Assembly (NCBI RefSeq): GCF_003334385.1
Contig: NZ_QOWN01000009.1
Origin: Escherichia coli
GTDB lineage: Bacteria > Pseudomonadota > Gammaproteobacteria > Enterobacterales > Enterobacteriaceae
DNA: 64,000 nucleotides
Direction: 5' to 3' (one strand)
In this document: in pieces, positions 41,369 through 46,158 of the stretch
How the letters are laid out: each line of letters opens with the position of its first letter
How positions within the stretch are numbered: the first letter of the stretch is position 1
The notes under the pieces: model-generated
What the model was told of the DNA's origin: nothing
What the model saw: the letters and a program-made list of their open reading frames with translations, nothing else
The model's database searches: none
Made by a program: the position numbers and the translations under genes

Positions 41369-42550
41369 TTAATGAGAGGTCAGGGTGTTATGCTGACGGT
41401 GACGGCTGACGAAACCTAACAGGAAGCACATCACAAAGACGACAGCGTACAGACCGTTTGCTGTAAGCAGTGCCGCCTGCGGACCGCTATGTTCAACGAT
41501 CGGGCCGGTAACCACAAAGGTCAACATAGTACCGATGGTTCCGCAGGTCAGGACAAAGTTAACCAGTTTTGGCGACGGTACTTTGGTCTGCTGTGAACCC
41601 AGGGTGATGATGGTGGTATAGATCGCGCTGGAGAAGAAGCCCAGAGCGAGAATTGACCACGCCATATGTGCTGGTGTTCCGGTGTTAAAGACGTACATCA
41701 GAATCGCAGCCAGACCAGCCAGTACGGTCAGAATGCGTTGCAAATCAAAGAAGCGAAGAATAAAGCTGAACGCCCACATGCCGACCATGTATGACATCCA
41801 GAAGTTACTCACCAGCGTGCCCGCGTCGTTCAGGCTCATGCCCAGGCCTTTGGCATACTCAGGCACCCAGGAGATAAAACCTAACTGACCGAGGATGTAG
41901 CACAACGCCGCAACAGAGAGAAACAGTACGCCGATCCCCCACTTTTCTTTCTCTACCGGAGCATCCGTTTTTGGCGCATGTTTGCCCAGCGCCGGGAACT
42001 CACAGCCGAAGGTCAGAATAAAAATAGCGACATACACCAGCCCGATGCAGGCATAAACCCAGTACCACTCAATGCTGCGCGCCAGTAGAAACGCGGCGAT
42101 CATTGGGAAAATCATCCCAGCCATACTGAAGAAGGAGTCGGTAAATAACAGGCGGGAACCGCGCTGACGCCCTTCATACATTTGTGTTACCAGGAATGTA
42201 CCAATCGACATGGTGATGCCGCTGACCACCCCGAGAATGAACATCGCCGCCGAGAACAGCGCCAGGCTGTGGCTGAACATCAAACCGGCAACCGCCAGCA
42301 CCATCAGGAGAAAGCCAAAACGTAACTGCGTTTTCAACGGGACGATTTCCATCAGCCAGGCGTTGAGGAAGATAGAGATTAAAATGCCGGCGTTGAGGAA
42401 GGTGAAGGTATTACTCATACTGGAAACAGGCAGATTGAAATAATCGGCGATATTTCCCATCACCATCCCGGTGACAATAACCAACGCACCAGTCAGTGCG
42501 TAGGAGAGAAAGCTAATCCATGTGAGCTTGATGCGATTGCTGTTAGTCAT
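41369..42550 (-). CDS. tsgA: MFS-family transporter TsgA
   Basis: 393-aa ORF, 12-TM-like hydrophobicity. Confidence 0.92.
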
Positions 42551-42811
42551 GATTGGCCTGCGTTCAAAAATAAAATGGCATAGCGGGATATGCCGCGAGC
42601 GGGCGATTTTAGGTGATTTTGTGATCTGTTTAAATGTTTTATTGCAATCGGTTGCTAAATTGCATTTTAAGAGGTGATTTTGATCACGGAATAAAAAGTG
42701 ATCGTCAGGTTACATATATTTCAGATACGTAAAATTAGGTAAAGGGATGGCCTTGTTCTTGAAGGCTATTTAGAATCTCTTCACTTGCTTTTTTTCTGCT
42801 CTGTTTGTTAA

Positions 42812-43393
<582 letters not shown>

Positions 43394-43402
43394 TGATTTC
43401 TC

Positions 43403-43433
43403 GCGCGGGCAATCTTGCCCGCGCTTCTGCTCT
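43403..43433 (+). terminator. rho-independent terminator after ppiA
   Basis: GCGCGGGC-aatctt-GCCCGCGC followed by TTCTGCTCT. Confidence 0.65.
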
Positions 43434-43497
43434 CCCGGCGTAACCCGGATTTGCCGCTTATACTTGTGGCAAATGGACACGTTCAGGGAGGCATCAA

Positions 43498-43665
43498 GTG
43501 AAGAAACTCACCGATAAGCAAAAGTCCCGTCTCTGGGAGCTTCAGCGTAATCGTAATTTTCAGGCCAGTCGCCGTCTTGAAGGCGTCGAGATGCCTTTAG
43601 TCACTCTTACTGCCGCAGAGGCTTTAGCGCGCCTTGAAGAGCTGAGGAGTCACTATGAGCGATAA
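43498..43665 (+). CDS. yhfG: small protein YhfG (55 aa), upstream partner of Fic
   Basis: Hand-translated from GTG 43498 (RBS GGGAGG): [55 protein letters not shown]; overlaps fic start by 11 nt. Confidence 0.8.
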
Positions 43666-44257
43666 ATTCGGCGAAGGGCGCGATCCGTATCTTTATCCAG
43701 GCCTTGATATCATGCGTAACCGGCTGAACATCCGCCAGCAGCAGCGGCTGGAACAGGCCGCTTACGAAATGACGGCGCTGCGTGCTGCGACCATTGAGCT
43801 TGGTCCGCTGGTGCGCGGTTTACCGCATTTGCGAACTATCCATCGCCAGCTGTATCAGGATATTTTCGACTGGGCAGGGCAACTGCGTGAAGTTGATATT
43901 TATCAGGGTGATACGCCGTTCTGCCACTTTGCTTATATCGAAAAAGAGGGCAATGCCCTGATGCAGGATCTGGAGGAAGAAGGTTATCTGGTTGGCCTGG
44001 AGAAAGCGAAGTTCGTCGAGCGGCTGGCGCATTACTATTGTGAAATCAACGTGCTGCATCCCTTCCGGGTGGGAAGTGGTCTGGCACAGCGGATCTTCTT
44101 CGAGCAACTGGCGATTCATGCCGGATATCAACTGAGCTGGCAGGGTATCGAAAAAGAGGCCTGGAATCAGGCAAATCAGAGTGGGGCAATGGGGGATCTC
44201 ACCGCACTGCAGATGATATTTAGCAAAGTGGTAAGCGAAGCCGGGGAATCTGAGTAA
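43655..44257 (+). CDS. fic: FIC-domain protein
   Basis: 200-aa ORF; FIC motif region reads [12 protein letters not shown]. Confidence 0.93.
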
Positions 44258-44288
44258 AATAGCGCGGTTCTTTTGTACCGGAGCCGCC

Positions 44289-44852
44289 ATGATCCTGCTT
44301 ATAGATAACTACGATTCTTTTACCTGGAACCTCTACCAGTACTTTTGTGAACTGGGGGCGGATGTGCTGGTTAAGCGCAACGATGCGTTGACGCTGGCGG
44401 ATATCGACGCCCTTAAACCACAAAAAATTGTCATCTCACCTGGCCCCTGTACGCCAGATGAAGCCGGGATCTCCCTTGACGTTATTCGCCACTATGCCGG
44501 GCGCTTGCCGATTCTTGGCGTCTGCCTCGGTCATCAGGCAATGGCGCAGGCATTTGGCGGTAAAGTTGTGCGCGCCGCAAAGGTCATGCACGGCAAAACC
44601 TCGCCGATTACACATAACGGTGAGGGCGTATTTCGGGGGCTGGCAAATCCACTTACCGTGACACGCTACCATTCGCTGGTGGTGGAACCTGACTCATTAC
44701 CAGCGTGCTTTGACGTGACGGCCTGGAGCGAAACCCGCGAGATTATGGGGATTCGCCATCGCCAGTGGGATCTGGAAGGTGTGCAGTTCCATCCAGAAAG
44801 TATTCTTAGCGAACAAGGACATCAACTGCTGGCTAATTTCCTGCATCGCTGA
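44289..44852 (+). CDS. pabA: aminodeoxychorismate synthase glutamine amidotransferase subunit
   Basis: 187-aa ORF, class I GATase (catalytic GVCLGHQ). Confidence 0.96.
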
Positions 44853-44922
44853 TTTCTGATTGCCATTTAGTGATTTTTTATGCATATTTTGTGGTTATAA
44901 TTTCACATTTGTTTATGCGTAA

Positions 44923-46158
<1,236 letters not shown>

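Follow-up and report, generated by a model that had tools for sequence, protein, structure and literature searches.

The overlapping genes yhfG and fic, carried by the 64,000-nucleotide stretch of Escherichia coli DNA analysed here (the window), are the known chromosomal E. coli pair EcFicT/EcFicA and very probably represent a FicTA module that was fixed vertically, lost AMPylation and has been kept by selection as a non-toxic complex. The degenerate FIC motif, the YhfG partner, the structure of the complex and the question of whether the protein has a new function or is inactive were already published in 2016 (PMC5033356), and the first-pass annotation of this DNA, in both its observation and its reading, restates that literature and holds nothing new as stated. 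From the conservation described below, we infer that Fic may still be catalytic. Two concrete versions of such an activity, a transferase using a new donor and a deAMPylase-type complex in which Glu28 of YhfG would be catalytic, are each held here only tentatively.

Layout and identity of the yhfG-fic locus

All features of the locus lie on the + strand. The gene for the 55-residue FicA-type partner, yhfG (= ecficA; 43498..43665), begins with GTG and is preceded, 6 nt 5' of this start, by a Shine-Dalgarno-like GGGAGG read directly from the sequence (43486..43491). The gene for the 200-residue class I FIC-domain protein, fic (= ecficT; 43655..44257), starts within the 3' end of yhfG, and the two reading frames share the 11 nt claimed for them by the first-pass annotation, ATGAGCGATAA (43655..43665), which run from the start of fic to the stop of yhfG. 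RefSeq likewise annotates two overlapping genes at an identical locus. This overlap probably couples the translation of the two genes, and a second Shine-Dalgarno-like element within the 3' end of yhfG, GAGGAG (43644..43649), may serve fic. The neighbours, considered only as context, are ppiA upstream (peptidyl-prolyl isomerase A; 42821..43393), identified from the list of open reading frames and the RefSeq annotation of the identical locus, and pabA downstream (aminodeoxychorismate synthase component 2; 44289..44852), identified from its reading frame and annotation and lying 31 nt past the fic stop. The pair has been classed as a strongly RpoS-dependent operon (PMC2907692). A promoter scan of positions 43300-44400 returned no sigma-70-type promoter, a terminator scan of the same interval gave four terminator-like matches, on either strand and all within coding sequence, and an Rfam scan of positions 42500-45000 matched no RNA family. 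Loci with 100% identity occur, for example, in E. coli strains 300709 and HeN100, and the window derives from a non-K-12 E. coli.

Profile searches matched Fic to the Pfam family Fic (PF02661; E=1.5e-13, residues 58-152) and to the NCBIfam equivalog NF007672 (430 bits, the curated cutoff being 181), and YhfG to the Pfam family YhfG (PF10832; E=5e-24) and to NF007573 (127 bits, the curated cutoff being 77). Among solved structures, Fic matches chain A of the E. coli complex (PDB identifiers 5JFZ and 5JFF) with E=4e-134, the natural difference from K-12 being R27 for H27, and YhfG matches chain B of the same entries with E=6e-31 and is identical to it save for an engineered mutation. Membership of Fic in the FIC/Doc superfamily is borne out by the PF02661 match, by the HPF at residues 135-137 and by the near-identity to 5JFF/5JFZ. 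Relative to the K-12 pair (b3361 and YhfG; PMC5033356), the gene order, overlap, FIC motif and inhibition motif are the same, YhfG is identical, and apart from residue 27 of Fic nothing of substance differs.

A regular-expression search of the YhfG translation located the inhibition motif [S/T]xxxE[G/N] as SRRLEG at residues 24-29 (43567..43584), a motif that the first-pass annotation does not mention. The pair has the hallmarks of a class I FicTA, namely a small separate upstream gene with an inhibition-motif helix and, by sequence identity to the solved chains A and B of 5JFF/5JFZ, a complex of the class I type. The arrangement had been described in the first-pass annotation as toxin-antitoxin-like, and this description is apt, as YhfG is a FicA-type partner that has been crystallised bound to Fic (PDB identifiers 5JFF and 5JFZ). 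Glu28 of YhfG forms a salt bridge with Arg146 of Fic in the crystal structure (PMC5033356).

The archetypal FicTA pair VbhT-VbhA of Bartonella schoenbuchensis (PDB identifiers 3SHG, 3ZC7 and 3ZCB) has the same class I arrangement and fold as Fic-YhfG, and shares with it the pairing of the antitoxin Glu with the second Arg and an N-terminal DPY segment. VbhT differs from Fic in having a canonical motif, in being a proven gyrase/topoisomerase IV AMPylase, in its location on a mobile element and in carrying a secretion domain, while VbhA has three helices where YhfG has two and a loop (an 8-residue deletion). The YhfG helix also has a Phd-like kink. The closest solved canonical relative of the window Fic is Fic-1 (PDB identifier 8WT0) from Pseudomonas bijieensis 2P24, where the class I FicTA pair Fic-1-AntF AMPylates GyrB at Tyr111 and, as a complex, deAMPylates AMP-GyrB (PMC13327609). 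The two Fic proteins align ungapped over residues 1-196 and therefore share residue numbering (135, 139, 143 and 146). In AntF, Ser24 and Glu28 are numbered as in YhfG; AntF is also encoded by a small upstream partner gene and forms a stable complex with its toxin. Fic-1, however, has the canonical HPFREGNGRAQR and is a toxin that AMPylates GyrB, whereas the window Fic has Val139, Ser141 and Leu143 and no AMPylation.

The FIC signature and the history of its degeneration

The degenerate FIC signature of Fic (residues 135-146; 44057..44092) is identified from the translation and alignment. Compared with HxFx[D/E]GNGRxxR, it retains the His (His135, 44057-44059) and the second Arg (R2; Arg146, 44090-44092), and has Val139 (44069-44071) for the acidic residue at position 5, Ser141 (44075-44077) for the Asn at position 7 and Leu143 (44081-44083) for the first Arg (R1) at position 9. 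These are the three replacements that the first-pass annotation had listed, and every coordinate and residue given there is correct. In the FIC signature, the acid at position 5 is a Mg2+ ligand and R1 binds the beta-phosphate. The proposed check of the register against FicT/VbhT-class proteins gave ungapped phmmer alignments with Fic-1 (PDB identifier 8WT0; E=2e-49) and VbhT (PDB identifier 3ZCB; E=6e-33), which place the signature opposite HPFREGNGRAQR and HPFREGNGRTLR, respectively. These alignments make it certain that the motif lines up, position for position, with HPFREGNGRxxR, the canonical form in solved relatives. A true FIC motif elsewhere in the protein is ruled out by these ungapped alignments together with the presence of a single HPF, at residues 135-137. 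Asn132, just before the signature, is retained in the species alignment.

Nearly all of the best 120 database proteins (79-100% identity) read HPFR[LIVF]G[SN]G[LMI][AV]QR, with two single-residue exceptions. Since the same motif recurs in these relatives, the locus is found in 5426/5426 E. coli genomes and RefSeq agrees with the reading, the deviant motif is neither a sequencing error nor a strain oddity. Within the broader family, HPFR[D/E]GNGR is retained in 116 of 137 representatives of clusters formed at 50% identity, and the degenerate signature is confined to the enterobacterial cluster that holds the window Fic.

Among 81 aligned sequences, position 139 is Ile, Leu or Val in 77 and is Asp only in Edaphovirga, which keeps the canonical HPFRDGNGRAQR at the same ppiA-pabA locus. 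Position 143 is Leu, Ile, Met or Val in 73 of the 81 and Arg only in eight basal taxa, and in Shimwellia, LSJC7, Franconibacter and Cedecea the acid has been lost and the first Arg kept. Loss of the first Arg maps to a single event on the neighbour-gene tree. The neighbour-joining tree thus indicates that the acidic residue was lost first and the first Arg later, once. Position 141 is divided across the clade, with 41 Asn vs 39 Ser and at least six switches on the tree. One homologue, P0129 (48% identity), lies between ppiA-like and pabA-like genes and has the motif YFFCFGNGLIQC, with no His; it was considered as a further-decayed homologue and rejected as an artefact. Its contig shows C-to-T conversion in every gene, with Pro to Leu/Phe, Arg to Cys and His to Tyr changes and Gln codons turned to stops. 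Because this conversion is systematic and contig-wide, P0129 is an assembly of bisulfite-like reads and not biology. Matches in the phage collection were limited to Salmonella and E. coli chromosomal fragments deposited there and one distant metagenomic match, giving no sign of phage origin.

The first-pass annotation had expected the motif changes to abolish AMPylation, and two laboratories indeed detect none: Stanger et al. 2016 describe no auto- or target-AMPylation by EcFicT, even with YhfG E28G (PMC5033356), and Lu et al. 2020 find that EcFic b3361 does not AMPylate EcGyrB or EcParE (PMC7479194). Normal AMP-transferase activity, which that annotation had named as a refuting outcome, is thus absent from the published assays. 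Stanger et al. point to Harms et al. 2015 (Cell Reports) as the primary source of the negative results on AMPylation and toxicity, and report no toxicity or activity when the inhibitory Glu is mutated (PMC5033356). The crystal structure indicates that ATP does not bind EcFicT, although the adenine pocket is retained, and Stanger et al. regard the PFxxGxG of the motif as structural (PMC5033356).

Conservation of the pair and purifying selection

Every one of the 5426 complete E. coli genomes carries the yhfG-fic locus with no less than 90% identity, and in 5424 the match spans 80% or more of the query. Across Enterobacteriaceae, sampled with one locus per species, ppiA lies upstream in 80/80 loci and pabA downstream in 78/80, one of the other two ending at a contig end, and the order ppiA-yhfG-fic-pabA-argD holds in essentially all 80. 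The 11-nt overlap is kept in 78 of the 80 species, and the Fic reading frame is unbroken throughout, at 196-202 residues. The mobile, patchy and horizontally transferred distribution typical of type II TA modules is not seen here, as the locus is core and occupies the same place in all species; vertical inheritance of EcFicT/EcFicA has been described before (PMC5033356). The PADLOC model PDLC04838, for the candidate defence system PDC-S04 (a single Fic-type gene), matches Fic with E=4e-75. Its setting, however, is not that of a defence island, as it belongs to the core genome and keeps its place between housekeeping genes.

Simple pairwise Nei-Gojobori estimates, with dS near saturation in many pairs, give median dN/dS values against the window of 0.095 for Fic, 0.115 for YhfG, 0.075 for PabA, 0.053 for ArgD and 0.029 for PpiA. 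For Fic the value is 0.12 over 789 pairs within the clade that lacks the first Arg, and the overall range for fic, 0.05-0.12, is comparable to pabA. Invariant residues are concentrated in the motif (8/12, vs 59/200 in the whole of Fic; hypergeometric P=0.007), where the H, P, F, R0, G, G, Q and R2 are the same in all 81 sequences. Each of these invariant residues is encoded by two to five synonymous codons, Arg146 by five. Across the 73 species of the first-Arg-less clade, 73 Fic residues are invariant. In YhfG, Ser24 is kept in 79/79 species and Glu28 in 78/79, with synonymous codon turnover, and 75 of the 79 species have the strict [S/T]xxxE[G/N] motif. Fic and YhfG, including His135, Arg146, Ser24 and Glu28, are thus held by purifying selection. 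Gly55 of Fic, encoded at 43817..43819 and wild-type Gly in the window, is likewise invariant in the 81 sequences; it is the site of the classical fic-1 allele (G55R), which causes filamentation, the phenotype of FicT toxins (PMC5033356).

A few disruptions were observed. One E. coli genome, that of strain MS 21-1, has ISEc10 inserted in fic, and one E. albertii draft genome has a yhfG W13* nonsense allele beside an intact fic, an allele found in 0/5415 E. coli genomes. Expression signals for pabA, placed by older literature within or upstream of fic, may explain part of the conservation at the level of the locus. As fic knock-outs are viable (PMC5033356) and one natural E. coli genome carries an IS-disrupted copy, any function of fic is dispensable in the laboratory.

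Possible activities of the Fic-YhfG complex

On the account that we favour, a class I FicTA module was fixed between ppiA and pabA in an ancestor of the Enterobacteriaceae and inherited vertically thereafter. Its signature lost first the metal-binding acid (139 to Ile/Leu/Val) and then, once, the beta-phosphate-binding first Arg (143 to Leu/Ile/Met), and with these two residues went ATP binding and consequently AMP-transferase (toxin) activity. Decay did not follow: purifying selection has kept the catalytic His135 and Arg146 of Fic together with its anion-hole glycines, the helix of YhfG that bears Ser24 and Glu28, and the 11-nt overlap. Most likely, the pair works as a stoichiometric, non-toxic, strongly RpoS-dependent Fic-YhfG complex. 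Purifying selection on His135 and on Glu28 of YhfG, a form of comparative evidence, suggests that some Fic activity is to be found, and His135 would be expected to serve phosphodiester chemistry on something other than ATP; against this expectation, the conserved His and glycine-rich loop could also reflect needs of folding or binding.

The alternative that Fic is an inactivated remnant, raised in the first-pass annotation, is contradicted by these selection and conservation data if it is taken to mean a toxin gene drifting to a pseudogene beside an antitoxin still there by chance. Three consensus motif residues are gone, fic is dispensable (PMC5033356) and rare disruptions exist (MS 21-1 and the E. 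albertii draft), but the near-complete coverage in 5424/5426 E. coli genomes, the unbroken frames of 80 species, a dN/dS like that of pabA and the 73 residues invariant over 73 first-Arg-less species do not fit drift, and the sole apparently decayed homologue found, P0129, is a product of sequencing chemistry. This reading is effectively refuted and retains next to no credence. An ordinary AMP-transferase toxin, acting on gyrase or topoisomerase IV under conditions yet to be tried, is very improbable in spite of a fold and complex very close to those of VbhT-VbhA and Fic-1-AntF and of the toxin-like filamentation of the fic-1 allele (PMC5033356). It is opposed by the two independent negative assays, one including the E28G partner (PMC5033356) and the other the cognate EcGyrB and EcParE (PMC7479194), and by the structural indication that ATP does not bind (PMC5033356). 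Moreover, a single E139A or R143A exchange is enough to remove the AMPylation and toxicity of Fic-1 (PMC13327609), and the window Fic is changed at both positions. A catalytically dead enzyme, kept with YhfG for binding, scaffolding or regulation, or with its frames kept partly for expression signals of the folate-pathway gene pabA, would agree with the failure ever to detect an activity (PMC7479194 and PMC5033356), with viable knock-outs (PMC5033356), with the need of PFxxGxG for the fold and with the position of pabA, 31 nt past fic, in nearly all species. Yet constraint from a promoter cannot yield a dN/dS of about 0.1 across 200 codons, nor hold His135, Gln145 and Arg146 invariant while their codons change synonymously; His135 is directed into the active site, with no evident part in the structure, and Glu28 of YhfG is conserved as well. 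We consider this pseudoenzyme rather doubtful.

Two readings keep Fic catalytic. The 2016 working hypothesis of atypical chemistry for EcFicT, still unproven (PMC5033356), holds that Fic is a re-tooled transferase for which a new donor other than ATP supplies a phosphate-linked group to be passed to a new target, with YhfG still inhibiting through Arg146; the donor, partly hydrophobic and phosphate-containing, would sit in a clade-specific extended pocket. Since Arg146 and His135 are kept and the anion nest still has its second glycine, a diphosphate could bind, and positions 139 (I/L/V) and 143 (L/I/M) are held hydrophobic in 73 species, not merely relaxed. An altered FIC signature can mean new chemistry and not inactivity, as in the kinase Doc, with its antitoxin Phd, and the phosphocholine transferase AnkX, although their motif variants differ from that of Fic and keep charged phosphate-binding residues. 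These precedents, and the clustering of many clade-specific residues round the site and on the flap, were noted in the 2016 study (PMC5033356). The same analysis counted 43 positions specific to the clade and described a hydrophobic pocket that is new; these suggest gain of a new ligand more than mere loss of the writer activity, and so count against the eraser considered below (PMC5033356). However, our literature search over the ten years to mid-2026 found no donor, target or activity, and no toxicity or activity was reported on mutation of the inhibitory Glu (PMC5033356). The single E. albertii draft in which yhfG W13* stands beside an undamaged fic also weighs against a transferase, as it implies that free Fic is harmless or that a base call is wrong. 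A re-tooled transferase is a possibility that we hold tentatively.

The other catalytic reading, to which we assign a rather low probability, is an eraser-only complex, in which Fic-YhfG would be a deAMPylase or a related nucleotide-monophosphate hydrolase that lost the writer activity and kept the reverse reaction. In the homologous Fic-1-AntF complex (PDB identifier 8WT0), which deAMPylates AMP-GyrB, E139A and R143A each abolish AMPylation and toxicity and leave deAMPylation intact, whereas H135A and AntF E28G abolish deAMPylation (PMC13327609). Because positions 139 and 143 are thus needed only for AMPylation and the His and antitoxin Glu suffice for deAMPylation, Fic-YhfG could be an eraser; it has, at the level of residues, what a class I deAMPylase requires (His135 and the partner Glu28, with 139 and 143 dispensable). 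The window Fic amounts to a naturally occurring double mutant at 139 and 143 in which His135 and Arg146 are intact; Ser24 and Glu28 of YhfG, the adenine pocket (PMC5033356) and Asn132 are retained. The loss of ATP binding is old, yet 78/79 species still have the 'inhibitory' Glu28, a persistence that calls for an explanation. Plasmids, those of Klebsiella among them, carry canonical class I Fic homologues. In such an eraser, His135 would protonate the leaving tyrosine and Glu28 of YhfG would position or activate a water, while hydrophobic residues at 139 and 143 may also keep cellular ATP out of the site. The enterobacterial ancestor would have domesticated a FicTA module by dropping 139 and 143 and keeping His135 and the partner Glu28, leaving a constitutive, stationary-phase-induced hydrolase that removes AMP, or a nucleotide mark akin to it, from, for example, GyrB or ParE. 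Possible substrates would be AMP-GyrB and AMP-ParE made by incoming FicT toxins, chromosomal immunity against which is one possible use, or marks placed by non-Fic AMPylases. Against the eraser, the motif acid binds metal in other Fic deAMPylases, as known from work on FICD and EfFic; K-12 has no evident cognate writer, the gain-of-function filamentation of G55R is left unexplained, and the acidic patch of the Fic-1 site (E29, E36 and E139; PMC13327609) is Q29, A36 and V139 in the window Fic. Our literature search found no paper that proposes an eraser-only role for EcFicT.

The founding Fic protein has long posed a puzzle over its biochemical activity. The Fic family owes its name to this protein, by way of a phenotype reported in the early 1980s. 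Its lost residues coincide exactly with the ones that a 2026 study found to be specific to AMPylation in Fic-1, a close homologue, a correspondence that would narrow the question of its activity to deAMPylation. If the eraser reading were true, which we think rather unlikely, the founding Fic would be neither a failed nor a re-tooled writer, and would instead be the catalytic core of an eraser-only enzyme.

The yhfG-fic locus and its FIC motif

In the window, yhfG (43498-43665, plus strand; 55 codons, GTG start preceded by GGGAGG) and fic (43655-44257, plus strand; a 200-codon ORF) overlap, as read from the ORFs, by 11 nt (ATGAGCGATAA), with tsgA (minus strand) and ppiA before the pair and pabA and argD after it. 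The FIC motif lies at 44057-44092 on the plus strand and encodes the 12 residues 135-146 of Fic; the only HPF of the whole protein is that of residues 135-137. ORF reading and translation reproduce all the coordinates, the 11-nt overlap and the motif residues of the first-pass annotation. Upstream, a GC-rich hairpin, GCGCGGGC-aatctt-GCCCGCGC, is found 3' of the ppiA stop (43403-43424) and a TATACT hexamer 34 nt before the yhfG start codon (43459-43464). A sigma-70 consensus scan around these elements found no promoter; the hexamer could represent a sigma-S -10 element, since a transcriptome listing gives the yhfG-fic operon as strongly RpoS-dependent (PMC2907692).

The two proteins carry the Pfam domains PF02661 (Fic) and PF10832 (YhfG), and both score far over the cutoffs of their NCBIfam equivalog models. 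Fic matches chain A of PDB 5JFZ and 5JFF (E=4e-134), the E. coli 'probable adenosine monophosphate-protein transferase Fic', with a natural difference from K-12 at residue 27 (R in the window, H in K-12), and YhfG matches chain B of the same entries, named 'uncharacterized protein YhfG'. Megablast found the 901-nt region, annotated as yhfG, fic and pabA, in 5426/5426 complete E. coli genomes as a single chromosomal copy each; a locus 100% identical to the window has equal gene coordinates and an equal overlap. Fic (coding positions 43655-44254) also matches PDC-S04 of PADLOC strongly (E=4e-75), a candidate single-gene Fic defence system; the matching fic is a core gene flanked by housekeeping genes.

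Using phmmer, residues 1-196 of Fic could be aligned ungapped to Fic-1 of the Pseudomonas Fic-1-AntF module (PDB 8WT0), its closest canonical solved relative, with identical residue numbering. Residues 135-146 face HPFREGNGRAQR of Fic-1 and HPFREGNGRTLR of VbhT, and therefore Val139 replaces the Mg2+-binding acid, Ser141 the Asn and Leu143 the first Arg (R1) of the motif, while His135 and the second Arg (R2, Arg146) are kept. No canonical FIC motif occurs elsewhere in the protein. The alignment with FicT/VbhT-class proteins proposed in the first-pass annotation thus confirms its register and its reading of the three substitutions.

The degenerate motif of E. coli Fic was reported in 2016 by Stanger, Harms, Dehio and Schirmer (PLoS One), who determined the structure of the complex and introduced the gene names ecficT and ecficA (PMC5033356), and the pair had been predicted as toxin-antitoxin by Makarova et al. 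(2009). Given these structures and the earlier and later papers, the finding is a correct rediscovery of a feature known in detail from crystal structures of the exact pair. The toxin-antitoxin-like arrangement proposed earlier for this locus is likewise borne out: YhfG residues 24-29, SRRLEG, match perfectly the [S/T]xxxE[G/N] Fic inhibition motif, and the pair crystallised as a complex.

Conservation and spread of the degenerate motif

We surveyed one genome per species, yielding 80 Enterobacteriaceae loci, which together with the window gave 81 sequences. The order ppiA-yhfG-fic is unbroken in 80/80 loci, with pabA and argD downstream except in two or three of them (one being cut by a contig end), the fic ORF has 196-202 codons throughout (80/80) and the 11-nt overlap is present in 78/80. 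Close EcFicT homologues were earlier described as confined to Enterobacteriaceae, syntenic and vertically inherited (PMC5033356).

Among the 81 Fic sequences, H135, P136, F137, R138, G140, G142, Q145 and R146 are invariant, position 139 is I/L/V in 77, position 141 is Asn in 41 and Ser in 39, and position 143 is L/I/M/V in 73 and Arg in 8. Invariant positions are enriched in the motif (8/12 vs 59/200 across all of Fic; P=0.007). Each invariant motif residue uses two to five codons (for example, CAT in 50 and CAC in 31 sequences for His135, and five codons for Arg146); these amino acids are held while the DNA turns over. In YhfG, Ser24 and Leu27 are kept in 79/79 and Glu28 in 78/79.

Nei-Gojobori dN/dS estimates, which are crude with dS close to saturation, have medians vs the window of 0.095 (Fic), 0.115 (YhfG), 0.075 (PabA), 0.053 (ArgD) and 0.029 (PpiA), and within the clade lacking R1 are 0.12, 0.17, 0.083, 0.062 and 0.032, respectively. 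Even so, they lie an order of magnitude under neutrality, which makes it very improbable that fic is a decaying remnant; the inactivated remnant offered as an alternative in the first-pass annotation is contradicted by these ratios, the intact ORFs and the residue conservation. The fic-yhfG genes are core, vertically inherited and under selection.

On a neighbour-joining tree of concatenated PpiA, PabA and ArgD proteins, the outgroup is Edaphovirga, the sole surveyed species whose Fic motif is fully canonical (HPFRDGNGRAQR, at this locus). The acid is gone but R1 retained in Shimwellia (Thr139), LSJC7 (Phe139), Franconibacter (Ile139) and Cedecea (Ile139). R1 is missing in every other taxon, a loss that maps as one change; Asn/Ser141 switched at least six times. 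In the wider family, HPFR[D/E]GNGR is kept in 116/137 representatives of 50%-identity clusters, and, scattered single-residue variants aside, the degenerate form is limited to the enterobacterial cluster. The tree and the cluster survey agree with the 2016 phylogeny and reproduce it independently. YhfG residues 24-29 read SRRLER in Trabulsiella (loci L038, L045 and L080; Gly29 to Arg) and STALDG in Edaphovirga (L079; Glu28 to Asp).

Atypical and misleading records

In Escherichia albertii NBRC 107761 (NZ_BBMY01000054.1; L004 2880-2882), yhfG codon 13 is TGA, not TGG (W13*), cutting off YhfG ahead of the inhibition motif with the overlapping fic ORF intact; the allele occurs in 0/5415 complete E. 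coli genomes, and, unless it is a base-call error, it would mean that free Fic can be tolerated. E. coli MS 21-1 (NZ_CP146670.1; L083 2756-5491), one of only two non-contiguous fic loci among the 5426 genomes, has fic split by the IS21-family element ISEc10 (istA, istB) and yhfG intact.

Between fic and pabA, Enterobacter sp. kpr-6 (L026 3600-4450) and Enterobacteriaceae bacterium UBA5654 (L034 3600-4480) carry a ~0.85 kb insert with two minus-strand ORFs, encoding a putative Xre-type helix-turn-helix protein (~116-125 aa) and a ~127-166 aa protein that by eye looks like a RelE/killer-type toxin; the insert would be a candidate conventional mobile toxin-antitoxin pair beside the domesticated one. 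L033, L036, L055, L068 and L071 have shorter insertions there, of 100-180 nt.

An 11.3-kb Klebsiella oxytoca 'plasmid' (H13; NZ_CP069919.1, 5675-6274) bears yhfG-fic with Fic 100% identical to that of the window; genuine K. oxytoca Fic has only ~84% identity, and the record is probably an E. coli chromosomal fragment or contamination. Two 'phage' records (H43, AFYI01000003.1; H44, AGRM01000003.1) are Salmonella chromosomal contigs of >500 kb whose matches are the usual locus, annotated as toxin and antitoxin components. The database proteins P0001 (252 aa) and P0005 (233 aa), with both Pfam domains on a single chain, are probably not true fusions but products, on short Logan contigs, of frameshifts or of gene-calling read-through over the 11-nt overlap. 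P0129, a seemingly decayed Fic lacking the catalytic His, was rejected: its contig (L082 1-5420, Logan SRR18107612) has systematic C-to-T conversion in every gene (Leu/Phe for Pro, Cys for Arg, Tyr for His, stops for Gln codons), the protein has Q where the contig has stops, and the contig was apparently assembled from bisulfite-type reads, a pitfall for homology surveys.

Possible activities of the Fic-YhfG complex

In the stable Fic-YhfG complex, Glu28 of YhfG pairs with Arg146 of Fic (PMC5033356); the overlap and an internal GAGGAG may couple translation of the two genes and so supply stoichiometric subunits. The first-pass annotation expected the substitutions to abolish AMPylation, and none is demonstrable in published assays. 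Neither auto- nor target-AMPylation was seen for EcFicT, YhfG E28G included (PMC5033356), and EcFic (b3361) was absent from the proteins giving signal in an independent test with E. coli GyrB/ParE and radioactive ATP (Lu et al. 2020; PMC7479194). The EcFicT structure disfavours ATP binding, mainly through Leu in place of R1 and a hydrophobic residue in place of the acid (PMC5033356), and an ordinary AMPylase is hardly credible. The 2016 authors described 43 clade-specific conserved positions and an extended pocket, and held that the family probably acquired a new, undiscovered activity (PMC5033356); their transferase with a new donor is possible, though we would not presume it. His135 would still serve catalysis; a role for Fic that is non-catalytic seems unlikely to us.

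The complex might instead be a deAMPylase that does not AMPylate, which we suggest tentatively and consider rather doubtful, because of mutant data on Fic-1-AntF, itself a deAMPylase: H135A in Fic-1 and E28G in AntF abolish deAMPylation, whereas in Fic-1 E139A and in R143A AMPylation and toxicity are gone and deAMPylation persists (Chen et al. 2026; PMC13327609). E. coli Fic resembles a natural 139/143 double substitution with His135, Arg146 and YhfG Ser24 and Glu28 kept, and such an activity would account for the long retention of the 'inhibitory' glutamate after loss of ATP binding, for Fic non-toxicity and for the lack of AMPylation signal. However, the hydrophobic pocket peculiar to this clade, with its many specificity positions, points to a new ligand, the Fic-1 acidic patch (E29, E36, E139) is Q29, A36 and V139 here, a cognate writer is not evident, and the G55R phenotype would be left without explanation. 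Chen et al. (PMC13327609) do not discuss EcFicT as an eraser, a June 2026 paper still terms the mechanism elusive, and our search of the literature on EcFicT/EcFic, yhfG with fic and FicT deAMPylation found no function assignment.
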